64,000 nt of DNA. It comes from Planctomycetota bacterium (GTDB lineage Bacteria; Planctomycetota; UBA1135; UBA2386). Location of the stretch: assembly GCA_965228735.1 (NCBI GenBank), contig OZ245838.1:6304001-6368000 (forward strand), in the 5' to 3' direction. Both the position numbers and the translations under genes were made by a program. Positions 389 to 52,716 of the stretch are shown here, piece after piece. The notes under the pieces were generated by a model. It saw nothing but the letters and a program-made list of their open reading frames with translations. It did not search any database and had not been told where the DNA came from. Numbering within the stretch: position 1 is the first letter of the stretch; each line of letters starts with the position of its first letter.

Positions 389-2380
389 TCAGAAGGACCC
401 TGTCAGCAGGGCGAGGGCGTCGGATACGACGGCGCCCAGAGCGTTCGTTCCCGGGTCGAGCACGAGGGCCTGGACGTAGAAGTTCACGCCGGCAAACGTC
501 CCGTTGTTCGGCAGGGAGATCGCGTGTTGCGCGATGCCGCCGGTACCGATCAGGATGACGTTCGCGTCCGGGCTGGCGTGGCCGGTGCAACCCGGGGCTC
601 CGAGGCTCGCGAGCGATAGCGGCAGCGGGCCGAACGGCGACGTCGTGTTCGACAGGCCGATCATCAGGAAGCCGACGTTGGTCGGCATGTTGTCCAGTTC
701 GACCGTCGTGGTCGTGCCGAGCTGCGGCCGGCTCGTGCCCACGGGCTGCAGCGTCGGAACGCCGAGTGAGCCGGCGCAGCCCGGCGCGTAGAACGTGATG
801 CTGCCCTGCGGGAAGGAGTTCTCCCTGAGGTAGTGCAGCTCGCCGACCCACTGCCGCGGCGCGAACTGCGGCGCGACGGTGAACGGTCCGTTCGGGACCC
901 ACGCGGCGGCGACCGGGGTGAGCGTGAGGTCAGCGTTGCTGATCGGAGCGCTCGCGTTGAGGTAATACGCGGAGTTGCCGTTGTGATAGATGCCGACGCC
1001 GTAGCTCCTGCCCGGCAGCAGCAGGATCGGGCGGTCGAGCACGACGCGCGCGGGCACGTTGGCGCCCGGCGTGATGCCCGTGGCGGTGGCGACGCGGCGC
1101 CACGCATCCGGGTTGGTCTCCTTCCCGAGCGCGCTGCCGTCGGTCAGGAACACCTCGATGGCCATCGGGTTGCCGGCCGGCGTGTAGCTGTTGCAGTCGA
1201 TCGCGCAGATCGACAGCGCTTCGGTCGCGTTCACCGTGAGGTCGAACATCACGACGCCGAACTCGTTGATGAAGCTCGCGGCGTTGTAGCCGCCCGTCGA
1301 CAGGCTGTCGCTCGCGATCGTGACGCGGCGGGTTCGGGACGACGTGCGGCAGCCGTTCGTCACCGTGAGCGTCGCCGCGTAGCTCCCGGGGCCGTAGGTC
1401 GTGAGCGGGTTCTGCAGCGTCGAGTCGACGTTGCCGTCGCTGTCGAAGTCCCACGCCCATGACAGCGGCGTGCCCGTGCTCTGGTCGGTGAACTGTACGT
1501 TGAGCGTCGGTGCCGGACCGGTGTTCGGGCTCGGATCGAAATCCGCCACGAGCGGGTCGATGCTCATGAGATCGGGCCAGACCACCGAGGTCGAGCCCGC
1601 CGCAGTCGTCACCGTGAGTCGCACCGAGTAGTCCCCGCAGGTGGCGTAGGTGAACGCCGGATTCTGCAGCGTCGAGTCGACCGTGCCGTCGTCCTCGAAG
1701 TCCCACGCCCAGCCCGTGATCGCCCCGCTCGCCGCCGTCGATAGGTCGCGGAACTGGACCAGGTGCGGGCTCGCGCCGGTCGGCTCACTGGCGGTGAAGT
1801 CGGCCTCGTCGCTCGTCGCGGGCGCGTAGTGCACGCGCACGTTCGCCTCACGTGGCGAGAACACGGTCGAGACGAACGGCTCGTTCTGCGCGGAGCCTGG
1901 CGTGATCGTCAGGTCACCGTTGGCGGATGGCGTCGAGTTGTTGCTGTAGCGCGTGGCCGCGCCGTGGTAGAGCACCGCGACGCCGTAGCTGCCGGGGGCG
2001 AGCACGAACGGCTTGTCGAGGATCGCGACCGTCGGGTTGTCGCGGCCGGCCGTGAACATGGTTGCGCGGCCGCGCAGCATCCACGTTCCCGGCGCCGGGC
2101 CGACGAGGTTGCCGACGTGTGAGACGCCCGCCGCGGTGGTGTAGACCGAGATGCTCGCCGGCGTCGCGCGCGGGTTCTGGCAGTTCACGTCGAAGCGGTG
2201 GATCGAGAGTCCCGCCGGGTTGGTCACGGTGACGTCGAAGTAGACCGCGCCGCCGACGCTGCCGCCGTTGTTGCTCGTGAAGGTCGTCGTGAGCGACTGC
2301 GCGGCGAGCGACGGGATGAGCAGGGCGAGCAGCAGAGCGAATCGGGCGCGGAGGCAAACGAGAGTGGCAGCCTGCAACAT
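389..2380 (-). CDS. Secreted protein: beta-sandwich repeat + 2 PKD domains + beta-sandwich repeat + shared C-terminal domain
   Basis: Signal peptide ending SLAA|QS; two PKD motifs (W(A)WDF..DG.VDST.QNP...Y...G.Y...LTVT); GAGGAG SD upstream; C-terminus FYAPGCAG...QALVLDPGTNALGAVVSDA. Confidence 0.85.
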   Translation of the reverse strand: MLQAATLVCLRARFALLLALLIPSLAAQSLTTTFTSNNGGSVGGAVYFDVTVTNPAGLSIHRFDVNCQNPRATPASISVYTTAAGVSHVGNLVGPAPGTWMLRGRATMFTAGRDNPTVAILDKPFVLAPGSYGVAVLYHGAATRYSNNSTPSANGDLTITPGSAQNEPFVSTVFSPREANVRVHYAPATSDEADFTASEPTGASPHLVQFRDLSTAASGAITGWAWDFEDDGTVDSTLQNPAFTYATCGDYSVRLTVTTAAGSTSVVWPDLMSIDPLVADFDPSPNTGPAPTLNVQFTDQSTGTPLSWAWDFDSDGNVDSTLQNPLTTYGPGSYAATLTVTNGCRTSSRTRRVTIASDSLSTGGYNAASFINEFGVVMFDLTVNATEALSICAIDCNSYTPAGNPMAIEVFLTDGSALGKETNPDAWRRVATATGITPGANVPARVVLDRPILLLPGRSYGVGIYHNGNSAYYLNASAPISNADLTLTPVAAAWVPNGPFTVAPQFAPRQWVGELHYLRENSFPQGSITFYAPGCAGSLGVPTLQPVGTSRPQLGTTTTVELDNMPTNVGFLMIGLSNTTSPFGPLPLSLASLGAPGCTGHASPDANVILIGTGGIAQHAISLPNNGTFAGVNFYVQALVLDPGTNALGAVVSDALALLTGSF

Positions 2381-20800: not shown

Positions 20801-22726
20801 TCAGTAGATCAGCGTCTTGCCGCCGCTCGACATCGCGATGCCGTTCGTCGCGCTCGGGTCGAACACGAGCCACTGGAAGAACAGCGGCACGTTGCTGAAG
20901 CCCGGCGGCAGCGTCGGCATCACGAAGCGGAACTGCCCGTTCGCGCCCTGCGGGACGATGTTGCTGCGCATGTCGGGTGACACGAGCAGCTGGGATTCCG
21001 TGAAGCCGAAAGTCGCGAGGTTGACGGGCAGCAGGGTCGGGCCGCTCGCCACGTTGCTGAAGCCGACGTAGAGCGCGGCGAACGGGGCGGTGTTCGGCGC
21101 CATGCCTTCGAGCCGCAGCTCGAAGTTGCTGGTGCCCTCGAACGGCTGACCGCGCATCGTCGTCCGGCCGCGCAGGCTGCGGCCGAAGCGCCACGGCCCG
21201 TGCAGCTCGTAGAGCACGCTGCCCTGCCCGGTCTGCACGACCGCGAGCATGTGCATGCCGCCGCGGTTGTTCGGGTTCAGCAAGCGGTAGACCTCGAAAC
21301 CGCGCGCGATGCCGCCGGGCGGCCCGCCCGCGTTCGGCACCTGCAGGTTGCCCCAGAAGCGCGTGCCGGTCGGTCGGTGGTCATAGGCCGAGTACTCGGA
21401 GCCGTTGACGCGCAGCGTGCCGCGCGGCGTGGCCTCGGGCTGGCTGCTGAAGAAGTAGTAGCGGCCGAACGTGTGGTCGTAGCCGGCGCCCTGGGCGCGT
21501 TGCGGCAGGGACTGGAACGTGCGGAGCACGGCCCCCGTCGTGAGTGCGACCTCGTAGCCGAGGCCGCCCTGATCGGTGATCAGGAACGTGCCGGCGCCGA
21601 GATCGCCGTCGCGGTTGAACGCGATGCTCAGGGGCTCGGGACCGCCCGCGGCCGGCAGCGCTGCCGTCACGAACAGCGGTGTCAGCAGCGCGCCGGACAG
21701 AGCGTCGATCGCGCGGATCTCGACGCTGCCGCCGGGCGAGCCGCGGCGATCGACGATCGCGTAGACGACCTGCGTGTGCGGAGCCGTCGGCGAGGTTTGA
21801 ATGGTTCGCACCGTGAGGTCGGAGGCGCCGAACGGGGCCGCGGCCGGCGTGTCGGGCAGGTTGGTCGACGAGATCGGCTGGCCCGACGCGTTGAAGCGGA
21901 TCAGACGGTGGGGGAGGCCGGTGCCGGGCGCGAGCGCGCTGACCCAGTAGCTGCGCTGGAACGTCGCCGGGTTCTCCGTCAGCGCCGCGGCGACGCACGT
22001 CCGGCCGCCCGTCGCCGCCGTGAGGTTGATGCCGGTCTGCCCGAACGTCGAGTCGTCGACCTCGCCGAGCGCCTCGGCGTCGGCGTCGGCGTCCTCGACC
22101 TTCACGCAGCGACTGCTGACGAACAGGTCGTCGATCGCGACGTCGTTGTTGAGATCGGTGAACAGTTCGATCACGACGTCCTCGTCGTCGGGTTGCGGCC
22201 AGAGTTCACCCATGATCGTGACCGTCTCCCAGCCGCCGCCGACGGGCACCGACTCCCACGTCACCGAAGAACGGTCGTAGGCGGCGAGCTGCTCCTCGAG
22301 AGACGCCGTGATCTCGCCGACCGTGCCCTCGAGCGCGTCGAACTGCACCTCGAAGATCTTCACCCAGTTGACGTGCGGATCGTTGTCCGCGGTCAGGTCG
22401 ATCGACGCGGTCTGCGGCGAGCCGTTGCCGAGGATGCCGAGCACGTCCGTGCGGCCGGCCAGCGCCGGGATCACCTGCAGCGGACCAGTGGTCGCGAAGA
22501 CGGTCTGCTGCGGGTTGTACCACGACGCCGTCGCGACCTGCTGCGGCACGAACGGCGTCGCGCCGCTGAAGTCCCAGTACAGCGACATGGTCTCTTCGTC
22601 CTGCACGCCCCACCACGGCGGCGCGTCGAGCGGCGTCGGGATCTGAGCAGCGAGAGTGCTCGCGAGTACGGCGCTCAGCAGCGGGGCGGCGGTGCTTGCT
22701 AGCACGCTTCGGATGCGGTGGTTCAT
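20801..22726 (-). CDS. Secreted protein (beta-sandwich + propeller-like region) with shared C-terminal domain
   Basis: Signal ending TLAA|QI; C-terminus LPVNLATFG...FFQWLVFDPSATNGIAMSSG. Confidence 0.8.
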   Translation of the reverse strand: MNHRIRSVLASTAAPLLSAVLASTLAAQIPTPLDAPPWWGVQDEETMSLYWDFSGATPFVPQQVATASWYNPQQTVFATTGPLQVIPALAGRTDVLGILGNGSPQTASIDLTADNDPHVNWVKIFEVQFDALEGTVGEITASLEEQLAAYDRSSVTWESVPVGGGWETVTIMGELWPQPDDEDVVIELFTDLNNDVAIDDLFVSSRCVKVEDADADAEALGEVDDSTFGQTGINLTAATGGRTCVAAALTENPATFQRSYWVSALAPGTGLPHRLIRFNASGQPISSTNLPDTPAAAPFGASDLTVRTIQTSPTAPHTQVVYAIVDRRGSPGGSVEIRAIDALSGALLTPLFVTAALPAAGGPEPLSIAFNRDGDLGAGTFLITDQGGLGYEVALTTGAVLRTFQSLPQRAQGAGYDHTFGRYYFFSSQPEATPRGTLRVNGSEYSAYDHRPTGTRFWGNLQVPNAGGPPGGIARGFEVYRLLNPNNRGGMHMLAVVQTGQGSVLYELHGPWRFGRSLRGRTTMRGQPFEGTSNFELRLEGMAPNTAPFAALYVGFSNVASGPTLLPVNLATFGFTESQLLVSPDMRSNIVPQGANGQFRFVMPTLPPGFSNVPLFFQWLVFDPSATNGIAMSSGGKTLIY

Positions 22727-22777: not shown

Positions 22778-26441
<3,664 letters not shown>

Positions 26442-26449
<8 letters not shown>

Positions 26450-27113
26450 CCGACGGCCTCGACAGGTACCCCGACAACCGGGCCTGGGCGCGCGACAACA
26501 GCGCACGCACCGCCCCCTCGGTCGGCAGCCCCATCTCGGCGCAGATCTCGTCGGTGGAGAGCTCGAGGTAGCGCTTCAGCACGATGATCTCGCGCTCGCG
26601 GTCCGGCAGCTGCTGCAGCGCGACGCGGATCCGTTCGGCCAGCTCGGTCTCGTCGTGCACCTGTGACGGGGTCGCGTCCTTGCTCGGGATCGCCTCACGC
26701 ATGTGCTCGTCGATGCCGACGAGGCCGCCGTCCTGCGGCCGGCGCTTGCGCGCTTCGACGGCGCGGATGCGACGGATGATCTCGTATTCCGCGCCCTTCA
26801 GCAGCCACGCGAGGAACGAGCCCTCGCCGCGATACTCGAACTGATGCAGTCGCCGGAGCGCCGACAGGATCGCGTCCTGGGTCGCATCCTCGCTGTCCGC
26901 CATGAGCACCCGGTACTTCGGACCGATCAGCTTGCGCAGCGCACTTCGCAACCGATCGCGATAGCGCTCGAACAGCTGATCGATCGCGTCGCGATCCTGC
27001 TCCAGCGCGCGGCTGACCAGGTTGCGGGTGTTGTCGTCCAAGAACGGGGCGTGGGCGGGGAGCTTGCGATTTTGCCGCTTCCTGCCGCGGCGGCAAGTCG
27101 GGTCGGGCTTCAT
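26442..27113 (-). CDS. ECF sigma factor (kinase-associated)
   Basis: A..QLFERYR..L, DSEDATQD, F.YRGEGSF.AWL, TPSQ, ALQQLPDREREII.L, S..EI...MG...GAVR..LSRA. Confidence 0.9.
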
Positions 27114-27231
27114 GGCGCGTTTGCGGGGGGCGGCGCGACGGTCGGCGGTGGCAATCATGGGATGGCTCACCCGCGGAAGCGCCAGACCGCCGCGATCGCA
27201 CGGGGAATTCCGGCCCTGGTGGGATTCGGCG

Positions 27232-33170: not shown

Positions 33171-33464
33171 ATGGCCAAGCGAGAGAACATCAGCGTGTCC
33201 TTCACCTCCAAGCAGGCCGACTTCCTGGCCGAATGCGTCGCGTCCGGCCGCTACCAAACCGTCAGCGAGGTCGTGCGCGAAGGGCTGCGGCTGCTCGAGG
33301 ACCAGCAGCGGCTGCGGGATGCCGAGGTCGAGCGCGCCCGGGCGTTGATCCGAGAGGGTGCCGAACAACTCGATCGTGGTGAGACGGTCGACGCGGACAC
33401 GTTCTTCGCGGACTGGGATCGCGAGCTCGCGGCCCTGGAGGCGCGACGAACGGACGATTCATGA
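33171..33464 (+). CDS. parD: Type II antitoxin, ParD (RHH) family
   Basis: ISVSFT..QA.F....VASGRY.T.SEVVREGLRLLE. Confidence 0.92.
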   Translation: MAKRENISVSFTSKQADFLAECVASGRYQTVSEVVREGLRLLEDQQRLRDAEVERARALIREGAEQLDRGETVDADTFFADWDRELAALEARRTDDS

Positions 33465-33784
33465 GTCGGATCCAGCTCTCGCGCGCGACCGAGCGTGACC
33501 GCCGGGACATCATGGATTTCACGATCGCGCGCTTCGGACCGAGCCAGGCCCGGCGCGTTCGTGATGCGCTCGAGCAGACGCTTCGCCGACTGCTCGAATC
33601 ACCAGGCCTCGGGCGCACCAATCCGGAGCTGGACCCGCCGGGCCACACGCTCCGCTACTACGTCCTGTTGCGGACGTTCGTGATCGTCTACGAATCCGTT
33701 CCCGATGGGATCCGCGTCGCCCGCTTGCTGCACGGCGCGCGCGACGTTGCGAGGGAACTCGGTGGTGACGTCGGGGATGAGTAG
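33461..33784 (+). CDS. parE: Type II toxin, ParE/RelE family
   Basis: LS..A..D...I...T..RFG..QA, L...PGLGR, I.Y......I.V.R.LHG.RD; ATGA overlap with parD. Confidence 0.9.
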   Translation: MSRIQLSRATERDRRDIMDFTIARFGPSQARRVRDALEQTLRRLLESPGLGRTNPELDPPGHTLRYYVLLRTFVIVYESVPDGIRVARLLHGARDVARELGGDVGDE

Positions 33785-33902
33785 ACGTCCCGGCGCGCAG
33801 CGGTTGCAGTCCGAGTCCCGCGCAGAGTCAGCCACGCCGAGAGGGGCCGTAAGCAACAGCAGACGAGTGCGAATCGCCGCACTGCAGAGTCCAGGGCTGG
33901 AT

Positions 33903-33979
33903 TGGCACGCCCGGCAGGATTCGAACCTGCGACCATCGGCTTAGAAGGCCGGTGCTCTATCCAGCTGAGCTACGGGCGC
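33903..33979 (-). tRNA. tRNA-Arg(TCT)
   Basis: GCGCCCG/CGGGCGT acceptor stem, GCCA end, anticodon loop CT-TCT-AA, GGTTCGAATCC. Confidence 0.97.
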
Positions 33980-34135: not shown

Positions 34136-35119
34136 ATGCGCGCTACCACCACCGCAACCGCCGTTCTCTTCACTGTCACCATCGCCACCGCCCAGGCCCA
34201 GATCCAGGCGGCGTTCGACCCCTACGGCGAGTCGTGCAACGGCACGAGCGAGTCGGCGTGCCTCACGCAGAACGACGTGGGTCCAAGTCTGTCCGTCGGG
34301 TCGTTGCCCAACGAGTATGCCTACCCCGTCGTGAACACGACGGGCAACCCGATCCAGGTCGTCGGGTTCGAGGTCTTCACGGTGACGAACACCAACCCGG
34401 TCGAGACCGTCAACACGGCGGTCCACCGCGACGCCTCCGGGGCGGGCGCGGTGACGCATACCGCGCCGGACTTCACGGCCGCCGCCGTCGGCACGATCAC
34501 GGTCACCAACGCGCAGGCGTTCTATGCGACGACGGTGTATCCGCCGCTGACGATCGCGCCGGGCGAAGCGTTCTGGATCGCGCACGACTGCTTCAGCATC
34601 GTCTCACCCGCGGAGAACCTCGGTGGTGTCGCCGGGCCGGCCACGGTGCACTGGCGCCGGCCGAGCTACAACGGCAACGCCTGGACGACCTCGTCGTCCG
34701 TGACGAATCCGATCTTCAAGATCCGTTGCCTCGCGAGCAACGTGCCCGCCCCGGGTCTCACGGCGTCGTCGTTGCCCCAGCTCGGCGGCAACTTCGTGCT
34801 GGACGTGGTGGGCGGCGCGCCGAGCCTGTTCGCGTTCGTGATCTACTCGTTCGACAACACCCAGGTGTTCGGGTTGCCGACGCCGGTCGATCTCGCCTTG
34901 TTCAATGCGCCCGGGTGCTTCGGCTACGTGTCGCACGACGTCACCATCACGCTGCAACTCGACACGATGGGCCATGGTTCGACCGCGCCGTTCGCGGTTC
35001 CGAACAACCCGCTGTTCGACGGCCTCGTCTGGTACAACCAGGCCGCGGTCATTGCCCCTGGCGTCAATCCGTTGAGCATGCTCGCGAGCAACGCGGGGCA
35101 GGCCACCGTCGGGATGTGA
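34136..35119 (+). CDS. Secreted protein with the shared domain split around an inserted beta-sandwich
   Basis: Signal ending AQA|QI; FDPYGESCNG at the mature N-terminus; remainder LPQLG...APGC...NQAAVIAPGVNPL...SNAG at the C-terminus. Confidence 0.82.
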   Translation: MRATTTATAVLFTVTIATAQAQIQAAFDPYGESCNGTSESACLTQNDVGPSLSVGSLPNEYAYPVVNTTGNPIQVVGFEVFTVTNTNPVETVNTAVHRDASGAGAVTHTAPDFTAAAVGTITVTNAQAFYATTVYPPLTIAPGEAFWIAHDCFSIVSPAENLGGVAGPATVHWRRPSYNGNAWTTSSSVTNPIFKIRCLASNVPAPGLTASSLPQLGGNFVLDVVGGAPSLFAFVIYSFDNTQVFGLPTPVDLALFNAPGCFGYVSHDVTITLQLDTMGHGSTAPFAVPNNPLFDGLVWYNQAAVIAPGVNPLSMLASNAGQATVGM

Positions 35120-35201: not shown

Positions 35202-35879
35202 ATGCCCCGTTCCGACTCGAGTGCCCCGCATCGCGACCCGACGTCCTGGGGGCAGCTGATCGACAGCATCGACTCGGCGAACGTGTTCGTGCTGATCGCC
35301 GGTTGGCTCGGGCCGAAGGCGCGGCTGTCGGTCACGGTGGAGGACCTGTGGCAGGAGACCCTCTGGCTCGCCTGGCGCGACCGACAGCAGCACGAATGGG
35401 TCAACCTCCGCAAGTACCGGGCGTGGTTGCTCGGGATCGCGAAGCACCGAATCCGGGAGGTCGTGCGCAACCTCGGCCGGCAGAAGCGCGGGGGCGGCGT
35501 GCGGACGGATTCGCTGTCCGCGTTCGGCGGTGCGGACACGGCCGCTTCCTACCTGCCGCCGCAGTCGACGACGCCGAGTCGCGTCGCGTCCAACATGGAG
35601 CGGGCACGATCGCTCGAACAGGCGCTCGAGGCGCTCGACGAACCGTTGCGCGCGGTCGTGCGGTTGCGGCTGTTCGAGGAGGTGTCGTCGCAAGAGGCGG
35701 CTGACCGGCTCGCGATACCGCTGTCGACGGCGAAGGAGCGGTTCGTGCGCGGGACCAAGCGCTATCGGCTGGAGCTCGAGCGGTTGCTCGGCCGCGGCGG
35801 TGGCGACGGGGATCCGGACGACGGGGATGCCGACGACGGCGGCGCGTCGGCGACGACGACGCCGGGTGGGGCGCCGTGA
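35202..35879 (+). CDS. ECF sigma factor (kinase-associated)
   Basis: VEDLWQET, YRAWLLGIA.HRI, TTPSR, AL.AL.E..R.VV.LR.FE, E.A.RL.IP.ST.K.R. Confidence 0.88.
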   Translation: MPRSDSSAPHRDPTSWGQLIDSIDSANVFVLIAGWLGPKARLSVTVEDLWQETLWLAWRDRQQHEWVNLRKYRAWLLGIAKHRIREVVRNLGRQKRGGGVRTDSLSAFGGADTAASYLPPQSTTPSRVASNMERARSLEQALEALDEPLRAVVRLRLFEEVSSQEAADRLAIPLSTAKERFVRGTKRYRLELERLLGRGGGDGDPDDGDADDGGASATTTPGGAP

Positions 35880-38800
35880 CATCCGCGTCGCGTGACGATG
35901 ATCCCGCGTTCGCCGACCTGCTCGACGAACTGCTCGCGGCGTTGCTCGACGGCGAGGAGCCGGATCTCGTGAGCGTTGCCGAGCGCCACCCGGAGGCCCG
36001 CGAGCGGGTCGACGAGGCCTGGCGGCTGGCGTGTGACGTCGCGGGGCGGCGAGTGACGCCGCGACCGGTGCTCGGCGGCTACGAGGTCGTGCGGGAACTC
36101 GGGCGCGGCGGCATGGGATCGGTCTACCTCGCCAAGAACGAGCAGCTCGGCCGCGAGGTCGCCATCAAGGTGCTGCCGCACTCGTTCGGTCTGTCCGCAG
36201 CCAGCCGGCAGCGCTTCCTCGCCGAGGCGCGCGCGCTCGCGCAGGTGCACCACGAGAACATCGTCGGCATTCATCGCATCGTCGACGATGGTGAGCTGCT
36301 CGCGTTCGAGATGGAGTATGTCGATGGCCCGAGCCTGCAGACGCTCCTGTCGCACCTGCGCGCCGTGCGGGAGCGCACCGGCACCATGCCGACGCTGCGG
36401 GACGTCGCCGAACTGTTGCAGCTCGACGAGCATGCGCTCGGGGCTCGCAGCCTGACGCAGTTCTTCGTGCGGATCGGGCTCGCGGTCGCACGGGCGCTCG
36501 GCGCGGTGCACGACCGTGGGTTCGTGCATCGGGATGTCAAGCCGGCCAACATCCTGCTGCGGTGCGACGGCCAGCCCGTCCTGGCCGACTTCGGCCTCGT
36601 GCGCGACACCTCGCTGCAGCGCACGAGCCGGACCGGTTTCGCGGGGACGCCCGTCTACTCGTCTCCCGAGCAGATGCGTGGGCATTCGCCCGTCGGTTCG
36701 GCGACCGACGTCTACGCCCTCGCGGTGACGCTGTACGAATGCCTGACGCTGACGCCGCCGTTCGCGGGGCGCACGACGACGGACCTGTTGCGCCGGATCG
36801 AGGCTGGGCGGGTGCAGCCGTTGCGGCGACTCGCGCCCGATGCGCCGCGCGACCTCGAGACGATCGTCACGCGGGCGATGGAGCTGGAGCCGCACAACCG
36901 GTATGGCAGCGGTGGCGAACTGGCCGACGATCTCGAGCGGTTGCTCGAGCTGCGGCCGATTCGAGCGCGGCCCGTCGGGCTCGGTCGCCGACTCGGCAAG
37001 TTCTCGCGCCGCAACCGTGTCGCCCTGCTCGCCGGTTGTGCGGGTGCGCTCCTGGTGCTGCTGCTCGTCTGGCCGTTGTTCGCCCACGTGCAGGCCGCCG
37101 CCAGAGCCCAGGACGCGGCGGCGGCGCACGTTCAAAGCGCCCGCCAGCAGCTGCTGGCGCCGGCCTGTCGGGCGTTCGCTGCGGGTCGAACACGATCGTT
37201 CGCGGCGCGCGCTGTCGATCCGTCGGCGGATCCGCTGCAGTCGGCGGTTGCCGACTACGAACGCGCGCTCGCGCTGCAGCCGGCGAATGGCGCGGCGCGC
37301 GCCGAACTCGCGGTCGTGCGGATGGCGCTGTGGCAGCGCGACCTCACCGTGCAGAGTCGTGAGGGGCTCGCGGCGGCGATCGCAACGGCCGAATACGCGA
37401 CGCTCACGCGCGCGCTGCCGCCGCTCGTGCGCGAAGTCGCTCGCGGCATCGCGAGTGGAGCGGCGTTGCCGCCCGACCTGAGTGCGCGGCTGACGCGGGA
37501 CTCCGAGCGCGCGGCGCTCGGGTTGCTCGGCTACCTGCTCGGGGAACCCCGCCTGGTCGAGGTCGCCTGGGGAACGGCGGGCGTGGATGTCGGGAATGCC
37601 AGTCTGCGGGATGCGATCCAGGGTCTGCAGCTCCTGGCCGATGGCGACTCCGAGGCTGCATTCGCGCGGCTGCGCGCGGCCCATCGGTCGTTCCCCGATG
37701 TCGGCCTGGAGCTCGAACTCGCCGAGGCCGCGCTCGCGATGGGCGAGGTGACGCGAGCCGAACAGTGGTTCGGCCGCACGGCCGATTCCGGCGCCCGCGA
37801 TCCGCGGCGGCTGCGCGTGCGGGCGGACCTGCTCGCGGCGCGTGGTGACGATGAAGCGGCCGCCGCGCTGTACGGCGAGCTCGCGGAGGACTTCGTTCAT
37901 GATCCGACGCCGTTCTTCCGGCTCGCGCAGCTCGCCGCGCGCGCCGGCCGGCTCGAAGCCGCGGCGGCGCAACTCGAGGCGATCCTCGCCGCGTGGCCCG
38001 ACGAGCCGCGCTTTCGGCTGGCGCGCGCGCGGATCGCGCTGCAGCAGCGCGACAGCGCGCGCTACCTCTGGCAGGTGCTGGCCGTCCTGCGGCTCGATCC
38101 CGCGCGCCTGACCGCCGGTGGCGTCGCCCGGCGGCGCGAGATCCTGCGTATCGGCGGCCTGCTGCGGTTGCTCGGTGCCGACCTCGATCGGGCGGGCGGC
38201 CGGGTCGGAACCACGTTCCTCGGCGGCGAACAGCCCCTGCGCGCGCTGCTACCGAGCGAGCGGGTCGACCGACTCGAAGATCTCCTGCCGCACCTGGCCA
38301 TCGTGCTGGACTCGATGCCGGTCAGGATTCGCGGCGCGGGCATCGATCCCCTCACCCGTCGGTTGTTCGGCGAGTTGCCGTTGGCACTGGCGAGGCTGCC
38401 GGCCACCGCCGCCTGGCTCGGACCGGCACGGCGCTGGGCGTGCGAGCTGATGCCGACGGCCTTGTGGGCGGCCTATCCGACGCTCCAGCAGCTGCATCGG
38501 CAGCTGATCCTCACGTTGCCGGGTTCGGGCTGGAACTCCGTCGATCTGGTCGCGGTCGCGCCGCCGGTCGCGCTGCACCCCGTCCACGAGTTCGGCTCCG
38601 ACCTGCGCGTGGGCGCGGACTGGAACGGCGACGGCACGCCGGAGGTGCTCGTCGGCTGTCAGGCGAAGGACCCGCGATCGGCGCCGGGCCACGCGTTCGT
38701 CGTCGACGGACGGACGGCTGCCGTTCTCGCGTCGGTGGAACGACCGGCCGGCGACCACCTCTTCGGGTACGCCGTGCAGCTGCTCGGCGATGTCGATGGT

Positions 38801-39718
38801 GACGATGTCTCGGACTGGTGCGTCGGCGCTCCGGGTGGCGTCGCCGACGCGCGCGACGGCTTCGTCGAACTGCTGTCGGGCCGGGATCAGACCGTGATCG
38901 GTCGCGTGCGAGAGCCCGCCGTCGCTTTCGGAGTCGCGCTCGCGGCACTCGGCGATGTCGACGGTGACGGTGTGCCGGACTTCGCGGTCGGGGTGCCCCC
39001 GATCGTGCAGAACGCGACGCCTCAGGGCCACGTCTCGATCTACTCGGGGCGCACGCGGGAACGGCTGCGCGAGCTGCGGAACGACATCCCGGGCGTCTGG
39101 TTCGGGGCCTCCCTGGCAGCGGTCGGCGACGTCGATGACGACGGCTGCGTCGATCTGCTCGTCGGTGGCAACTATGGCGGCGCAGCAGGCCTCGTCCGGC
39201 TGTACTCGGGCCGCGCCGGCGTGCCGCTGCACGAGTGGCGCGACGCCTCGACGGTCAGCGGGTTCGGTGCGTTCGTGTACGGGTTCGGAGACCTGGACGG
39301 CGACGATGTCGGCGACATCGGCGTCGCGTCGGTCAGTGTAGACGGCCATCTGGCCGATCGCCTCGCCGTGTTCTCGGGCGCGGACGGGCGGACGCTCAAT
39401 GTCTTCGAATCCGGTCGACCGGGCTCACGTCTCGGGGTCGCTGCCGTGCGCTATGGCTGTGGCCTCGGGCCTCCGGTGCTCGCGATCGGAGCGCCGCTGG
39501 GTGGGAACGCGCAGACCGGTCTCGTCGAGCTGTGGTCGATCGACGGCCGGCCGCTGTCGTCGCTGCTCGGCGCCGCCCCGGCCGGGTTCTTCGGTGGTCG
39601 CCTGGTCTCCGTCGGCGACACGAACGGCGACGGTCGCGACGAGCTGTTCGTCAGCCGGGGGCGGGGCAACGGCGGGGTCGACCGTGTCGACTCGCGGAGC
39701 CTCACGATCTCCCGGTAG
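35876..39718 (+). CDS. Hanks-type Ser/Thr kinase + TM + TPR-like region + FG-GAP beta-propeller
   Basis: LGRGGMGSVY, HRDVKPAN, DFG, GTPVYSSPEQ; TM helix; six Dx(D/N)xDx..(D/E) loops with FG/GAP motifs. Confidence 0.92.
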   Translation: MTSASRDDDPAFADLLDELLAALLDGEEPDLVSVAERHPEARERVDEAWRLACDVAGRRVTPRPVLGGYEVVRELGRGGMGSVYLAKNEQLGREVAIKVLPHSFGLSAASRQRFLAEARALAQVHHENIVGIHRIVDDGELLAFEMEYVDGPSLQTLLSHLRAVRERTGTMPTLRDVAELLQLDEHALGARSLTQFFVRIGLAVARALGAVHDRGFVHRDVKPANILLRCDGQPVLADFGLVRDTSLQRTSRTGFAGTPVYSSPEQMRGHSPVGSATDVYALAVTLYECLTLTPPFAGRTTTDLLRRIEAGRVQPLRRLAPDAPRDLETIVTRAMELEPHNRYGSGGELADDLERLLELRPIRARPVGLGRRLGKFSRRNRVALLAGCAGALLVLLLVWPLFAHVQAAARAQDAAAAHVQSARQQLLAPACRAFAAGRTRSFAARAVDPSADPLQSAVADYERALALQPANGAARAELAVVRMALWQRDLTVQSREGLAAAIATAEYATLTRALPPLVREVARGIASGAALPPDLSARLTRDSERAALGLLGYLLGEPRLVEVAWGTAGVDVGNASLRDAIQGLQLLADGDSEAAFARLRAAHRSFPDVGLELELAEAALAMGEVTRAEQWFGRTADSGARDPRRLRVRADLLAARGDDEAAAALYGELAEDFVHDPTPFFRLAQLAARAGRLEAAAAQLEAILAAWPDEPRFRLARARIALQQRDSARYLWQVLAVLRLDPARLTAGGVARRREILRIGGLLRLLGADLDRAGGRVGTTFLGGEQPLRALLPSERVDRLEDLLPHLAIVLDSMPVRIRGAGIDPLTRRLFGELPLALARLPATAAWLGPARRWACELMPTALWAAYPTLQQLHRQLILTLPGSGWNSVDLVAVAPPVALHPVHEFGSDLRVGADWNGDGTPEVLVGCQAKDPRSAPGHAFVVDGRTAAVLASVERPAGDHLFGYAVQLLGDVDGDDVSDWCVGAPGGVADARDGFVELLSGRDQTVIGRVREPAVAFGVALAALGDVDGDGVPDFAVGVPPIVQNATPQGHVSIYSGRTRERLRELRNDIPGVWFGASLAAVGDVDDDGCVDLLVGGNYGGAAGLVRLYSGRAGVPLHEWRDASTVSGFGAFVYGFGDLDGDDVGDIGVASVSVDGHLADRLAVFSGADGRTLNVFESGRPGSRLGVAAVRYGCGLGPPVLAIGAPLGGNAQTGLVELWSIDGRPLSSLLGAAPAGFFGGRLVSVGDTNGDGRDELFVSRGRGNGGVDRVDSRSLTISR

Positions 39719-39848: not shown

Positions 39849-41264
39849 ATGACCGACCACCGATTCTCCGTTCGATTCTCGACGTTCGCTCTCGCCCTCG
39901 CGGCGCCCCTTGCCGCCCAGTGGGGTGAGCAGACCCCGGCCAGCGCGCCGTCCGCGCGCTCGGGTCACGGCATGTGCTTCGACGGCAGTCAGGCGCTGCT
40001 CGTTGGCGGCTCCGCCGGCTTCTCGACCAGCAACGAACTCTGGTCCTACGACGGTGCCAACTGGTCGGCCCTCGCCGCGTTGCCGAACGCTGGCGGCGTG
40101 ACCGGTGTCGAGCTGGTCTACGACTCCCTGCGCGGTGTCGCGGTGCTCTACGGCGGTCTCAACACCTCGTTCTTCGGCGGCCCGTCGATCGACGAGACCT
40201 GGGAGTTCGACGGGGTCAACTGGACGCAGAACCTCACCGCGACGACGACGCCCGGCGGCCTCGGCATCTACGGCGCCTGCTTCGACTCGACGCGGAACGT
40301 GATGGTCCTCTACGGCGGCAGCGCCGACTCGTTCTTCCCGATCGCCTCCGCGGCGCACTGGGAGTACGACGGCACGAGCTGGACCCAGGTCAGCGCCGCC
40401 GCGACGCCGGGCCCGCTCGAGCGCCCCGCGATGTGCTACCACGCCGGCGGCGGCGTGACCGTGATGTTCGGCGGCATCGACCCGCAGACCGGCGGGGTCG
40501 ACACGACCTGGCTGTACGACGGGGCGACCTGGCAGGCGGCGGGCGTGGCCGGGGCGCGGCCCGTCGAGCGCACGGGCTGCAAGATGGCCTACGACTCCGT
40601 TCGCGAGGTGTGCGTGCTGAGCGGCGGCATGAACCCGATGAACGGCCAGCCGATCGTCGACACCTGGGAGCTCGCGTTCGACGCGGGGACCACGACCTGG
40701 ACCTGGACGCAGGTGCCGACGAGCACGACGCCGCATCGCGACGGCGCGATGACGTTCCTCCCGGGCATCCGGCAGGTCGTCGAGTTCGGCGGCATCGATC
40801 CCGCGACGTTCTCGGATTCGGGCGCGACCTGGCACTACGGTGCGAAGGTCAGCACGTACGGCGCGGGCTGCGCCGGCACGTTCGGGGTCCCGAGCCTGAC
40901 GGCCGCCGACGCCCCGCGCCTCGGATTCGACTACGCCGTTACCCTCGGCAACCTCGATCCGGCCGCGACCATCGCGGCGTTCGTCATCGGTCTGTCGGAT
41001 CAGACGAGCACGTTCGGGGCGCTGCCGTTCGATCTCAGCGGTGCCGGCATGACGGGCTGCTCCCTGCTCGTGAGCAACGATGTCTCGGTGTTCATCGGCA
41101 CGGATCCTTCGGTGCCGGGCACGGCGACGCTGACGACCGCGCTGCCGAGCGACGTCACGTTCCTCGGGCTGCCGTGGTTCCACCAGGGCCTGTCACTCGA
41201 CTTCGCGGCCAACGCAGCCGGGCTGACGATCTCCAACGCCGTGGCGAGCACGGTCGGCAACTGA
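39849..41264 (+). CDS. Secreted Kelch-type beta-propeller with shared C-terminal domain
   Basis: Signal PLAA|QW; repeats M.YD......V.(F/Y)GG...DTW.YDG..W; YGAGCAG...SNAVASTVGN. Confidence 0.87.
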   Translation: MTDHRFSVRFSTFALALAAPLAAQWGEQTPASAPSARSGHGMCFDGSQALLVGGSAGFSTSNELWSYDGANWSALAALPNAGGVTGVELVYDSLRGVAVLYGGLNTSFFGGPSIDETWEFDGVNWTQNLTATTTPGGLGIYGACFDSTRNVMVLYGGSADSFFPIASAAHWEYDGTSWTQVSAAATPGPLERPAMCYHAGGGVTVMFGGIDPQTGGVDTTWLYDGATWQAAGVAGARPVERTGCKMAYDSVREVCVLSGGMNPMNGQPIVDTWELAFDAGTTTWTWTQVPTSTTPHRDGAMTFLPGIRQVVEFGGIDPATFSDSGATWHYGAKVSTYGAGCAGTFGVPSLTAADAPRLGFDYAVTLGNLDPAATIAAFVIGLSDQTSTFGALPFDLSGAGMTGCSLLVSNDVSVFIGTDPSVPGTATLTTALPSDVTFLGLPWFHQGLSLDFAANAAGLTISNAVASTVGN

Positions 41265-41266
41265 TC

Positions 41267-42640
41267 ATGCGCCGGGCTCTGGTTCTGCTCACGGCATCGC
41301 TCGCGTCGACATCGCTACCAGCCCAATGGGGAGCGGTGTCGACGACGGGCACTCCGGCTCCGCGCTCGGACGCGCTCCTCGCCTACGACCTGCCGAACCA
41401 GCGCATGCTGTTGTTCGGCGGGAACTGGAGCAACGACTTCTACAGCCTGCAGAACGGCGTCTACACCGCGCTGACGCCGGCGTCACTGCCGGGAGCGCGG
41501 ACTCGCGCCGCGATCGCGGTCGACTCCATCCTCGGCACCGTGGTGCTGTACGGCGGCGACGGGGGCGGAAGCCAGCTCGCGCTCGACGAAACGTGGCTCT
41601 GGAACGGGACCGACTGGCAGTTGCTGCAGACGACGGTCTCGCCGGGCGGTCTGGCGCGTCACTGCATGGCGTTCGACGTGGCTCGGCAGGAGACCGTGCT
41701 GTTCGGTGGTCGCCAGAACAGCTGGAACAGCACCCAGGCCTTCGGCGACACGTGGGTGTTCGACGGCACGGACTGGGCGATGGCGACGCCGCTGAACTCG
41801 CCGCCAGCGCGCCTGAACGCCGCGTTGGCGTATCACCCGGCGCTCGGCGGGGTGATGCTCCATGGTGGCGAGGATCCGCAGAGTGGTGCGCTGGGTGACT
41901 CCTGGTGGTTCGATGGCCTCGATTGGACGCAGCTGCCGACGACCGGGAACCAACCCTCACCGCGGAGCAAGGCCAACCTCGTGCCGATCCTCGGGCGCGC
42001 GGTGGTCGTGCTCCACGGCGGTGAAGATCCGACGACCCTCCAGATCCAGAACGACACCTGGGAGCACGACGGTTCGAGTTGGCGTCGCGTCGACAACGTC
42101 TACGGCGGCATCTACCCCGCGCGCCGCGGGGCCGCGGTGGCGCACGACTTCGCGCTGGACCGCCTCGTGGCGGTCGGCGGCAAGCTCGCCAACGGATCGT
42201 TGCGGAACGACACCTGGGAATACGGGGCGCAGTGGCAGCGGTTCGGAACCGGCTGCCCGGGCTCGAACGGCCGGCCGGACCTCGCCGGCGGCTCGCTGCC
42301 GCGGCTGGGGTTCACGTGCACGGCGGCGGTGACCAACCTGCCGCCCAGTGCGGGGGCAGCGATCATGACGGTCGGGCTCTCGCGCCAGCAGTGGGCCTTC
42401 GGTTCGCTGCCGATGCTCCTCGACCCGTTCGGCATGACGGGTTGCCGCGCCTACGCCAGCGCCGAGGTCGCGACTGCGGTCGCGGCGGTGGCCGGGGTCG
42501 CGAACTGGAGCTGGGCCGTGCCGAGCGATCCCGCGTTCGTCGGGCAGCCGTTCCATCTGCAGGCGATCGTCGTCGACCCGGCGGCCAACGCTGCCGGCGC
42601 GACCGTCTCCAACGCCGCCACGATGGTCGTCGGTTGGTAG
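41267..42640 (+). CDS. Secreted Kelch-type beta-propeller paralog with shared C-terminal domain
   Basis: ATG 2 nt after the upstream stop; signal SLPA|QW; same repeats; FGTGCPG...QAIVVDPAANAAGATVSNA. Confidence 0.87.
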   Translation: MRRALVLLTASLASTSLPAQWGAVSTTGTPAPRSDALLAYDLPNQRMLLFGGNWSNDFYSLQNGVYTALTPASLPGARTRAAIAVDSILGTVVLYGGDGGGSQLALDETWLWNGTDWQLLQTTVSPGGLARHCMAFDVARQETVLFGGRQNSWNSTQAFGDTWVFDGTDWAMATPLNSPPARLNAALAYHPALGGVMLHGGEDPQSGALGDSWWFDGLDWTQLPTTGNQPSPRSKANLVPILGRAVVVLHGGEDPTTLQIQNDTWEHDGSSWRRVDNVYGGIYPARRGAAVAHDFALDRLVAVGGKLANGSLRNDTWEYGAQWQRFGTGCPGSNGRPDLAGGSLPRLGFTCTAAVTNLPPSAGAAIMTVGLSRQQWAFGSLPMLLDPFGMTGCRAYASAEVATAVAAVAGVANWSWAVPSDPAFVGQPFHLQAIVVDPAANAAGATVSNAATMVVGW

Positions 42641-49376: not shown

Positions 49377-51062
49377 ATGCCGACGCTCGCGCCGATGCCA
49401 GAACCGACGAAGTGCGGGATGCGGGGCCTGCTCGCGATCGCGTTGTCGGTCGGCCTGGTGAGCGCCCAGTCGACCTGGCCCGCGCCGCCGACGCCGCCGG
49501 GCAATCCGACGACGACGGCGAAGGTCCTGCTCGGGCAGGCGCTGTTCTGGGACGAACAGCTGTCGTCGACGGGCACGGTCGCGTGCGGCACGTGCCACGT
49601 CTTCTCGCACGGCGGCGCCGATCCGCGCGCGCTGGACGCGGTGCATCCGGGGCCGGACGGGGTCTTCGGTACCCCGGACGATGGCCGTGGTTCGCCGGGC
49701 GTGCCGCCGAGCGACGGCGCCGGCCGCTACGGCTGGGTGCCGGCGACCGGGTCGAGCCCGCAGCTGACGCGGCGCACGTCGCCAACCGTGATCAACGCGG
49801 CGTTCCAGCGGTCGCAGTTCTGGGACGGCGTCGTGGAGAGCGGTGTCTTCCGCGATCCCGTGACCGGCGTGGTCGTGCTGCAGCAGGACGCGTTCCTCGA
49901 GAACCAGATCGCCGTGCCGCCGCTGAGCGCAGCCGAGATGGGGCACCCGGGGCGGGACTGGCAGGACGTCGTGCGCGCCGTGCGGCGCCAGGTGCCGCTC
50001 GCGCTCGCGAGCGGGTTGCCGCCGCGACTCGCGACGTTCGTGCACGGGCGGCGCTACGCCGAGCTCTTCGAGCGCGCGTTCGGTTCGCCCGGCGTCGACG
50101 CGGCGCGCATCGTCATGGCGATCGCGGCCTACATGCGAACGCTCGTGGCCGACCGGTCGCCGATCGACCTGTTCCTCCGCGGGCAGGCGCCGTTCCCGGC
50201 GGGCGCGACCAACGGCTTCGTCGAGTTCGGCGCGCGGTGCTCGCAGTGTCACAAGGACCTGAGCACGGCGTCCGTGCTCGAGGGCCCTGCGAGCATCGAC
50301 TTCCGCAATACCGGTGTGCGGCCACCGGGCGAGGACCGCGGCCGCTTCCTCGTCACGCAGGACCCGGCGGACGACGGGAAGTTCAAGAGCGTCGATCTGC
50401 GGAACGTCGCGTTGCGCGGGCCGTTCTTCCACAACGGCAGCGCGCGGACCCTGACCGAGGTGCTGCAGTTCTACGATCGCGGCGGGGACTTCGCGGCCAA
50501 CCGCGATCCGCTCGTGACCGCGTTGCAGGGGCAGCTGCCGCCGATCACGCGCGCGGAGATCCTCGCGTTCCTGCACGAGCTCACGGACCCGCGGGTCGCG
50601 GCCGAGACGCCGCCGTTCGACCGGCCGCGGCTGTTCCACGAGGGCGTGCGCGCGCCGCGGCTCCTCGGCACGGAGTCGGCGTGCGGGGCGGCGCCAGCCC
50701 CTCGGGTGATCGCCGTCGAGCCGGCGCTGTTGTCGCGCGGCGGCGTGACCGTTGCGGTCGACGGCGCGGACCCGGGCAGCCACGCGTTCCTCGGGCTCGA
50801 CGTCGCGGCCGCCGGAACGCCGCAGCTGCTCGGCGGCGTGGCCGTCTGGCTCGGACTGACGCCGGGAGTCGACGTGGTCTACGCCGGTAGGCTCAGCGCG
50901 CCGGCGGGCCCCGGCAGCGGTCACACCTCCGTGCGAGTGCCATTGCCGCAGCAGCCCGGCGCGGCCGGGCAGTCGCTGTTCGGGCAATGGTTCGTCACGA
51001 GCACGGGTTGCGCGAACGGGCTGGCGGCGTCGCGGGCGTTCGAGCTACGGTTGTTTCGCTGA
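49377..51062 (+). CDS. Di-heme cytochrome c peroxidase/MauG-superfamily protein with shared C-terminal domain (start may be 49419)
   Basis: LG.ALFWD..LS, CGTCH, QFWDG, CSQCH, FK...LRNVAL..PFFHNG. Confidence 0.9.
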   Translation: MPTLAPMPEPTKCGMRGLLAIALSVGLVSAQSTWPAPPTPPGNPTTTAKVLLGQALFWDEQLSSTGTVACGTCHVFSHGGADPRALDAVHPGPDGVFGTPDDGRGSPGVPPSDGAGRYGWVPATGSSPQLTRRTSPTVINAAFQRSQFWDGVVESGVFRDPVTGVVVLQQDAFLENQIAVPPLSAAEMGHPGRDWQDVVRAVRRQVPLALASGLPPRLATFVHGRRYAELFERAFGSPGVDAARIVMAIAAYMRTLVADRSPIDLFLRGQAPFPAGATNGFVEFGARCSQCHKDLSTASVLEGPASIDFRNTGVRPPGEDRGRFLVTQDPADDGKFKSVDLRNVALRGPFFHNGSARTLTEVLQFYDRGGDFAANRDPLVTALQGQLPPITRAEILAFLHELTDPRVAAETPPFDRPRLFHEGVRAPRLLGTESACGAAPAPRVIAVEPALLSRGGVTVAVDGADPGSHAFLGLDVAAAGTPQLLGGVAVWLGLTPGVDVVYAGRLSAPAGPGSGHTSVRVPLPQQPGAAGQSLFGQWFVTSTGCANGLAASRAFELRLFR

Positions 51063-51066
51063 CGTC

Positions 51067-52716
51067 ATGCAGCCTCTCGTTCCAGCCATCCTGCTGTTCA
51101 CCGCTCTCGTGGGCGACGCGGCTGCGCAGACCCTTTGGCCGCCACCGCCGACCCCGGCCGGCAATCCCACGACCGCGGCGAAGGTCTTGCTCGGCAAGGC
51201 GCTGTTCTGGGACGAACAGCTGTCGACGACCGGGTCGGTGGCGTGCGGCACGTGCCACATCCTGAGTCACGGCGGCGCCGATCCGCGTTCTCTGACGGCG
51301 TTGCACCCCGGCCCCGACGGCGTGTTCGGCACGCCTGACGACCGCCGGGCGTCTCCCGGTGTGCCGGCGAACGACGGTGGCGGAACCTACACGGGAGCTC
51401 CGGGTTTCGGCGCCGCGCCGCAGGTGACTCCGCGCGCGGCCCCGACGGTCATCAACGCTGCGTATCTCGGCGAACTGTTCTGGGACGGTCGGGTCAGGGA
51501 CGGCGTGTTCCGCGACCCCGTGACGGGCCAGGTAATGCTGAATGGCGATGCCCAACTCGAGAACCTGATCGCCGAGCCGCCGATCGATGCAATCGAAATG
51601 GGGCACCCGGGACGCTCGTGGGCCGACGTCGTCCAGCGGGTGCAGGGCGTCGAGCCGCTCGCGCTCGCCTCGCACCTGCCGGGTCCGCTCGCCACGTTCG
51701 TCTCGGGCCAGACGTATCCGGCGCTCTTCCAGCAGGCGTTCGGTTCCGCCGGCGTCGACGCGAGCCGGATCATCATGGCGATCGCGGCCTACATGCGCAC
51801 CCTCGTGAGCAACGGCTCGCGCGTCGACGCGTTCCTCGCCGGCACCGGTACGCTGACGACCGTCGAACAGAACGGACAGCAGTTCGCCGCGCAAATCTGC
51901 GTGCGCTGTCACGGCGACATCGATGACAACGTGTTCCTGCTGGGGCCGGCTTCGGTGCGATTTCGCAACACGGGTGTCCGGCCCATCGCCGAGGACCCGG
52001 GTCGCAGCGCGGTCACTCAGAGCGCGGCGGACGACGGCATGTTCAAGGCGCCGGACTTGCGCAACGTTGCGTTGCGCCCGCCGTTCTTCCACGACGGGAG
52101 CGCCGCGACGCTGGCCGATGTCGTCGCGTTCTACGCGCGCGGCGGTGACTTCCACGTCAACAAGAACCCGCTGATGAATGCGCTGCCCGGGTTTTTCGCC
52201 GCGTCGCCGCGCCTCGAGGCGGAGCTCGTGGCGTTTCTCGAGGCGTTCACGGATCCGCGCGTCGAACACGAGCTGCCGCCGTTCGATCGCCCGACGTTGT
52301 TCACCGAGGGGCCGAACCGGAACCTGCTGTTCCCCGCGGGCACGCCCGGCACCGGCGGCGTCGTGCCGCGCGCGGTCGCCGTCGAGCCGGCGCGCATCGG
52401 CGGTCGGGTCACGGTCGCGGTCGATCGCGGGCAGCCGGGTGAGTTCGCGCTGCTCTGGTGGGACGTCGCGGTGGCCCCGGGTCCACGTACGATCTTCGGG
52501 TTGTCCGTGCAGCTCGCGCTCACGCCGGCGACGACGCTGGCCGTCGCGGGCGCGCTGCAGGGCGCGCCGGGCGAGGCGTGGTTGTCCTGGTCGCAGCTCC
52601 TGCCGGCCGACCCGGTGTATGCCGGGCAACGGCTCTTCGGGCAGTGGCTCGTGACCGACCCCGCCGGCCCGAACGGGTTCGCGACGTCCGGCGCGTTCGG
52701 TCTGCGGCTGCACTGA
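51067..52716 (+). CDS. Di-heme cytochrome c peroxidase/MauG-superfamily paralog with shared C-terminal domain
   Basis: CGTCH, LFWDG, CVRCH, FK.P.LRNVAL.PPFFHDG; highly similar to the upstream gene. Confidence 0.9.
   Translation: MQPLVPAILLFTALVGDAAAQTLWPPPPTPAGNPTTAAKVLLGKALFWDEQLSTTGSVACGTCHILSHGGADPRSLTALHPGPDGVFGTPDDRRASPGVPANDGGGTYTGAPGFGAAPQVTPRAAPTVINAAYLGELFWDGRVRDGVFRDPVTGQVMLNGDAQLENLIAEPPIDAIEMGHPGRSWADVVQRVQGVEPLALASHLPGPLATFVSGQTYPALFQQAFGSAGVDASRIIMAIAAYMRTLVSNGSRVDAFLAGTGTLTTVEQNGQQFAAQICVRCHGDIDDNVFLLGPASVRFRNTGVRPIAEDPGRSAVTQSAADDGMFKAPDLRNVALRPPFFHDGSAATLADVVAFYARGGDFHVNKNPLMNALPGFFAASPRLEAELVAFLEAFTDPRVEHELPPFDRPTLFTEGPNRNLLFPAGTPGTGGVVPRAVAVEPARIGGRVTVAVDRGQPGEFALLWWDVAVAPGPRTIFGLSVQLALTPATTLAVAGALQGAPGEAWLSWSQLLPADPVYAGQRLFGQWLVTDPAGPNGFATSGAFGLRLH

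Follow-up and report, generated by a model that had tools for sequence, protein, structure and literature searches.

Some docking modules, among them dockerin, SLH and the CWB2 repeats of Clostridioides, are appended at either end of many exported proteins and are kept on them. Another kind of shared domain is the type A C-terminal domain of the T9SS of Bacteroidota (Por_Secre_tail, PF18962/TIGR04183), which is an Ig-like sandwich carried by many Sec-exported proteins of one lineage. According to PMC4804311, this signal is a seven-stranded sandwich that lies behind a disordered linker and is cut off by PorU.

The domain described here was found in a window of 64,000 nucleotides (the whole stretch of DNA that was analysed, G000:C1:6304001-6368000), taken from a genome of 7.19 Mb with 69% G+C that is held in a single contig and is 93% complete. 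Profile searches of this source genome returned 227-254 copies, varying with the iteration, and two profiles combined gave 299 copies among 5334 called genes, the genes that carry them making up 7% of the bases of the genome. Of 121 genomes sampled from the phylum, 23 have the domain, with a distribution that follows families and, for the most part, many copies per genome. No family model exists for it, and no description was found in the literature on the family or the lineage, as far as main texts outside subscription are concerned; the consulted parts of 10.1101/817700 and PMC11495043 do not mention it.

By analogy, the shared domain works most likely like a retained docking module. The fuller reading, by which hundreds of predicted Sec-exported proteins would be held at the envelope through uncleaved binding, is the one preferred here, with belief and doubt in about equal parts. 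Dockerin, SLH and CWB2 modules differ from it in fold, they show no Pfam or NCBIfam sequence match to it and they are not known to take cargo inside the module; for dockerin, no Pfam match was obtained in the window proteins and the predicted fold is all-beta. The novelty lies in an architecture that is nested, permuted and likely reciprocal, and in its mechanistic implication.

Fold of the shared domain

The domain is about 135-140 aa long, compared with about 70 aa for the T9SS signal, and unlike that signal it has an N-terminal arm, a Cys pair, and split, N-terminal, stand-alone and tailed copies. The model of an unsplit copy (42221..42637 of the window) is a beta-sandwich with a pLDDT of 97.4, and the split protein encoded at 34136-35119 (hereafter 34136), folded with 98 split homologues only, reached a pLDDT of 96.5 and a pTM of 0.91; the folded beta-sandwich expected in an earlier note on this DNA is thus borne out by both models. 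Core residues 15-139 of the 139 in the unsplit copy align with seven-stranded Ig folds (best Z 8.5, rmsd 2.4, 88 aligned), which is a generic fold match with many ties. Since this alignment does without the arm, the modelled Ig core is complete by itself and the arm is an additional, accessory strand, not the one that completes the sandwich, as had been supposed. T9SS signal structures were absent from the 50 fold matches listed for the core. No solved relative was found by sequence (best E 0.065), and an ML-type lipid-binding fold, which filled the top Foldseek rows, was rejected (TM ~0.3, rmsd >11).

An Ig fold and a free position in the protein are typical of substrate-binding accessory modules of the CBM kind, which would bind an outside polymer or surface and bring enzymes and adhesins there, and CBM56 is among the weak fold matches (Z 7.5, rmsd 3.1, 91 aligned), tied with many unrelated Ig folds. 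Such a role is unlikely in our opinion: the passengers are very varied, comprising S8-type peptidases (identified by eye), Kelch, PKD and di-haem proteins, the passenger of 34136 is itself lectin-like, and 299 copies per genome would exceed what one substrate explains.

It had also been proposed that the domain may be a lattice or fibre subunit. In such a case its copies would polymerise, for instance through exchange of the arm, and present their passengers. Stand-alone copies exist and an accessory N-terminal strand could in principle swap, but the single-chain models put the arm confidently on its own core. Moreover, the copies are only ~21-43% identical to each other and are scattered, with 148 of 182 clusters being single genes, unlike a dedicated lattice gene. 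None of the results supports this proposal, which we rate slightly below the substrate-binding one.

The split domain of 34136

The gene and its parts are as follows; residue numbers refer to the full-length protein, leader included.

34136..35119, + strand: gene for a predicted exported protein of 327 aa, with signal peptide, split shared domain and nested passenger
34136..34198, + strand: predicted Sec signal peptide with A-Q-A at its end, followed by Gln22 (from reading the sequence)
34199..34243, + strand: N-terminal arm of the shared domain, with a predicted strand at 34211-34225 and the Cys34 codon at 34235-34237 (from the arm profile and arm-core couplings)
34244..34738, + strand: inserted jelly-roll passenger of ~165 aa, "type A" (DUF4082-like, predicted lectin-like fold)
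34259 and 34727, + strand: Cys42 and Cys198 at the ends of passenger A, with the non-conserved Cys152 between them at 34589
34739..35116, + strand: remainder of the shared domain, a predicted Ig-like core that includes the conserved P-L-P...FG-PGC loop, a near-invariant Gln and Cys261 (34916)

The start and the gene call appear sound, as 34 database proteins of 313-330 aa match the product across 96-100% of its length. In all 34 aligned homologues, Gln22 is invariant and a hydrophobic stretch precedes it. Homologues of the protein carry Planctomycetota labels, and four of the homologue records (L081, L082, L085 and L091) bear the label Candidatus Brocadiaceae. Searches of the protein against Pfam and NCBIfam gave no match.

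All the motifs lie in a single frame. The first element of the domain, AFDPYGESCNG, stands directly after the signal peptide as the earlier note had stated, at 34211-34243 (its start of 34214 was one codon off), and is followed by SACLTQN (34253-34273), KIRCLAS (34718-34738), VPAPGL (34742-34759), LPQLG (34772), APGC (34907) and SNAG (35087). The remainder of the domain does resume behind the insert, though not at ~34727, which is the codon of the second bracketing Cys; VPAPGL begins at 34742. The bracketing of the ~165-aa insert by two Cys was likewise seen correctly, but the protein has five Cys (C34, C42, C152, C198 and C261) and not four, C152 (AHDCF) having been overlooked; it is not conserved among homologues.

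An arm profile made from 60 unsplit copies scored 15.8 bits at C34 of 34136, against -6.1 at the next site and -12.9 at C198. The profile chose the same site in 92 of the 98 split homologues, and in 85 of the 98 without the Cys column. In a MAFFT alignment, the first Cys of all 60 unsplit copies, which had been preselected for both Cys, fell on Cys34. On this profile evidence, the arm match in 34136 is not a chance match. One HMM alignment had given Cys198 as the first Cys of the domain; this was rejected by the arm profile and the couplings.

Within 138 split homologues, the seven strongest couplings of the arm all lead to core residues and none to the insert. The leading pairs were F27-N301 (z 12.2), A25-L213 (9.3) and Y30-V265 (8.9), followed by F27-W299, F27-G321, A25-L216 and F27-A323, and equivalent pairs are present in unsplit copies. 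The first strand of the split model is in the register of the unsplit model, and the arm Gly was aligned to residue 72 of chain 8kgz in both. Packing of the arm on the C-terminal core, as had been predicted, is thus supported, and the contrary outcome of an arm packed with the insert was not seen.

Cys pair of the domain

Among 222 unsplit copies, both Cys of the domain were present in 196, neither in 23 and one in 3, and the pair gave the top coupling (z 15.2). Genome-wide, 155 copies had both, 24 neither and 15 one only (p 6e-18; 194 ungapped copies of the 250 aligned), where several of the "second only" rows belong to split copies. A tree of 153 copies from the genome, computed without the Cys columns, showed 10 and 12 changes for the two Cys and 12 for them jointly, as against ~22 when the labels of the first were shuffled; Cys losses are partly clustered by kinship yet coincide. 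The two Cys thus behave as a pair genome-wide, in agreement with the co-variation suspected from the window, and we infer a disulfide between them (Cys34-Cys261 in 34136). Reading by eye, most of the Cys-less copies also have a shortened P-L-P...FG-PGC loop, from which it is likely that the bond staples this loop to the arm. The pair is absent from roughly a tenth of the copies and from the majority of those in the distant genome G011 (12 copies with ~70% covered, four of them N-terminal), so that the disulfide is dispensable in these and is not the binding determinant everywhere.

The window holds the following copies besides that of 34136.

392..811, - strand: unsplit copy with both Cys, at the end of the PKD-domain protein 389-2380
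20804..21200, - strand, limits approximate: divergent copy with no Cys, at the end of 20801-22726
40836..41261, + strand: unsplit copy with both Cys, right behind the Kelch propeller of 39849-41264
42221..42637, + strand: unsplit copy with both Cys, right behind the Kelch propeller of 41267-42640, chosen for folding
50640..51059, + strand, approximate: divergent copy on the di-haem protein 49377-51062, with two other Cys in place of the canonical pair
52320..52713, + strand, limits approximate: copy without Cys on the di-haem protein 51067-52716

The earlier note correctly listed both Cys as present in 389, 34136, 39849 and 41267 and neither in 20801 and 51067, but the motif of 34136 is SC.G and not GC.G, and a seventh copy, that of 49377-51062, was missing from its list. 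Six copies divided 4 vs 2 are too few alone, the chance of the pattern being 1 in 15. In the seventh copy, the second site lacks a Cys, but one lies close to the first site and another close to the end; from their positions near the arm and near the last loop, these two could form an alternative disulfide. The canonical pair is absent from all six domain-bearing proteins with CxxCH haem motifs, namely the two at 49377-52716 of the window and those at 4423781, 6249674, 2977262 and 6460978 of the source genome; five of the six are di-haem paralogues and so are not independent.

The inserted passenger

The insert of 34136 was modelled as a jelly roll that matches the lectin-like domain of Cwp84, 4ci7 (VIA Z 12.9, rmsd 3.1, 146 aligned), with a second comparison giving a similar result, and also 3no8 (Z 10.8). 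Of the 98 homologues, 14 showed DUF4082 (PF13313) with E values of 0.01 or below (best 1.4e-7). It was not detected in 34136 itself, and the paralogues scored 15.8-25.3 bits against a Pfam cut-off of 28.4. Among known folds, the insert would be closest to the DUF4082, Cwp84 lectin-like and PHR jelly rolls; unlike DUF4082 members, however, 34136 lacks a Pfam match of its own, and the identity to solved folds is only 9-12%.

The bracketing Cys42 and Cys198 couple as a pair (z 10.8, third overall among the 138 split homologues), as had been expected, although imperfectly: both are present in 79 of the 98 homologues and absent in 12, and 7 keep the second Cys alone. Since two of the three genes that have passenger A ahead of an intact domain retain the pair, it belongs, as judged from these sequences, to the passenger and not to the shared domain. 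Orthologues of 34136 were seen to be interrupted inside the insert by a stop in L089 and by a frame change in L092.

Nested, permuted and stand-alone architectures

The split is systematic and not peculiar to 34136. In the source genome, passengers occupy the same loop in 25 of the 299 copies, comprising 7 of type A, 17 of a NIDO-like type B and 1 of type C, which is a third predicted jelly roll. Type B resembles NIDO (PF06119), with one of 13 scanned inserts reaching the Pfam cut-off (25.1 bits) and a second being weak; it differs from the known domain in being nested in the shared domain in 17 genes, and it has no bracketing Cys pair. Six of the seven type A genes additionally have a large N-terminal cargo. 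Passenger A also stands ahead of an intact domain in 3 genes, one of which has the same parts in permuted order, and the earlier suggestion that cargo is accepted either N-terminally or in a loop is well founded. A second family with the order signal peptide, arm, passenger C and core was found outside the source genome (P0168). When 22 other genomes with the domain were searched, a single one had the full-length type A split form, which indicates a narrower spread than that of the domain. Models made from contiguous copies alone will miss or mis-cut about 8% of the members.

The position of the 299 copies was recorded as C-terminal in 256, with little or nothing in front in 15, N-terminal or internal in 13 (~10 of the copies being N-terminal) and tailed in 15. 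About 10 of the 15 with little or nothing in front show a visible signal peptide and stand alone. N-terminal copies were also observed in L222, L223 and L224, before Kelch propellers (two, apparently armless) or before five DUF7452 repeats.

The 15 tailed copies have tails of 13-60 residues, and ten of them, selected by eye, have passenger C ahead of the domain. In sequence, these ten short tails are similar to the final strands of type C passengers that are intact: they rank 1, 2, 3, 19, 30, 90, 393, 527, 764 and 1723 among 5111 (p 1e-6 in a rank test), the profile probability was 87%, and reversed tails used as a control gave at most 2.5 bits. Searching the other way round gave only a weak match (E 0.55), and covariation in this family was noise dominated by kinship. 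For one tailed gene (G000:2026848-2027909, with a tail of 33 residues), 200 homologues were found, and each of the 120 that were listed retains the tail and both Cys. It is thus likely from the sequences that nesting is reciprocal, the domain sitting inside the passenger in these ten copies. A different tail of ~33 residues is common to three genes with a divergent copy at the end (G000:C1 5780-6682, 6752-7645 and 3180940-3182820).

Retention of the domain

The folded sandwich had been taken to argue against a short cleaved tag. The T9SS signal is itself a sandwich and yet is cleaved, according to PMC4804311, so that the fold alone excludes nothing; retention is still the best reading, but on the grounds of the architectures. 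Cutting the domain off 34136 would leave the signal peptide only, its removal from the tailed, apparently reciprocal proteins would take the last passenger strands, and a removable C-terminal tag would hardly be expected to stand alone or at the N-terminus. Hence, the domain would stay on the mature protein.

These architectures bear directly on the idea of a T9SS-like C-terminal signal that is cleaved by a sortase-like enzyme. Like the T9SS signal in PMC4804311, the domain is placed at the C-terminus of Sec-exported proteins, with a predicted Ig-like sandwich fold, and a single Peptidase_C25 match was found in the genome (G000:C1 3598143-3600809), in a protein without the shared domain. The strictly C-terminal and contiguous placement of the T9SS signal is, however, departed from by the split, N-terminal or internal, stand-alone and tailed copies counted above, ten of the tailed ones among them, and the Kelch copies of the window have no linker before the domain. 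None of the 60 copies scanned and none of the seven window proteins matched the NCBIfam models of the T9SS signal, and PorV was not found in the source genome (control positive, genome 93% complete); searches for SprA, PorP and Por_Secre_tail gave no match either, but there the controls were silent too. In addition, the predicted disulfide would still hold the core after a cut between insert and core. A cleaved signal is, on the whole, highly improbable.

The retained docking module preferred here may be pictured as follows. The sequences show that the domain consists of arm and core and that a passenger may precede it, follow it or occupy the loop that comes directly after the first Cys. The core is modelled as an Ig-like sandwich and the arm as folding back beside its last strands, where the disulfide would staple it to the conserved hydrophobic loop P-L-P...FG-PGC. 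In 34136, the lectin-like jelly roll, with its own predicted end-to-end disulfide, would be placed in the stapled loop, which the nested forms mark as one that naturally takes domains of 150-270 residues. The domain would then replace a lipid or membrane anchor and bind a putative shared envelope partner (protein, glycan or lipid), perhaps via the stapled loop. As the nested and permuted forms argue for retention, a partner that binds the domain, or a translocon, becomes the object of the search in place of a protease that processes it, and small test proteins are at hand in the mature 34136 protein of 306 residues and the stand-alone copies.

Export context and the search for a partner

Leaders of the domain-bearing proteins are signal-peptidase-I-like in 202 cases and lipobox-like in 15, compared with 817 and 316 for other genes (p 5e-13). 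A membrane segment was found in 3 of 217 domain-bearing proteins versus 129 of 1133 others, and a Tat motif in none; these calls come from a rough heuristic applied to gene calls made in the analysis. PEP-CTERM, MYXO-CTERM and GlyGly-CTERM gave no NCBIfam match, and the notable elements of the model are beta strands, in addition to the rarity of membrane segments. An envelope location of the domain-bearing proteins is suggested, although free secretion would account for the scarcity of other anchors just as well.

The C-terminal position of 256 of the 299 copies is a point against docking, since it is what would be expected of an export signal. The domain could accordingly be a folded signal that is recognised in the periplasm by an outer-membrane translocon (type II or other) and left uncut, with the cargo being released or attached otherwise. 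This is a less probable reading than docking, but the foremost of its competitors: besides the C-terminal bias, the lineage-restricted spread in high copy number, seven secretin matches in the source genome and the low-charge cargo rich in Ser, Thr, Asn and Gly agree with it, it fits retention as well as docking does, and both could hold together. On the other side, the known terminal export signals offer no parallel to the N-terminal, stand-alone and internal copies, those standing alone would have no cargo, and no translocon was tied to the family.

Cohesin (PF00963) was not found in the source genome (control positive in 2 of 14; genome 93% complete). In a hunt for a partner, 2042 secreted-like proteins of the source genome were compared with ~70% of a distant genome that has the domain (G011, 1.93 Mb). 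Matches were obtained for 534, and 283 of these remained after stricter filtering; screening for barrels yielded 43 candidates, but none was conspicuous among the matches listed. Taken further, and only tentatively, the data may point to an undescribed surface-display system in a Planctomycetota lineage, with an uncleaved Ig-like adaptor on ~6% of genes that works N-terminally, C-terminally, around or inside its cargo and has a dedicated receptor or translocon.

As regards the neighbourhood of 34136, a pair of genes for an ECF sigma factor and a Ser/Thr kinase lies behind it (35202-39718 of the window), and a similar-looking pair precedes 20801 (22778-27158). A functional link of 34136 to its pair was rejected, as the pair is not conserved beside 12 orthologous loci, one of which has a kinase further off. 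Just upstream of 34136, two small genes within 33171-33979 adjoin tRNA-Arg(TCT) at 33903-33979, and these look like a putative ParD/ParE-type antitoxin-toxin pair.
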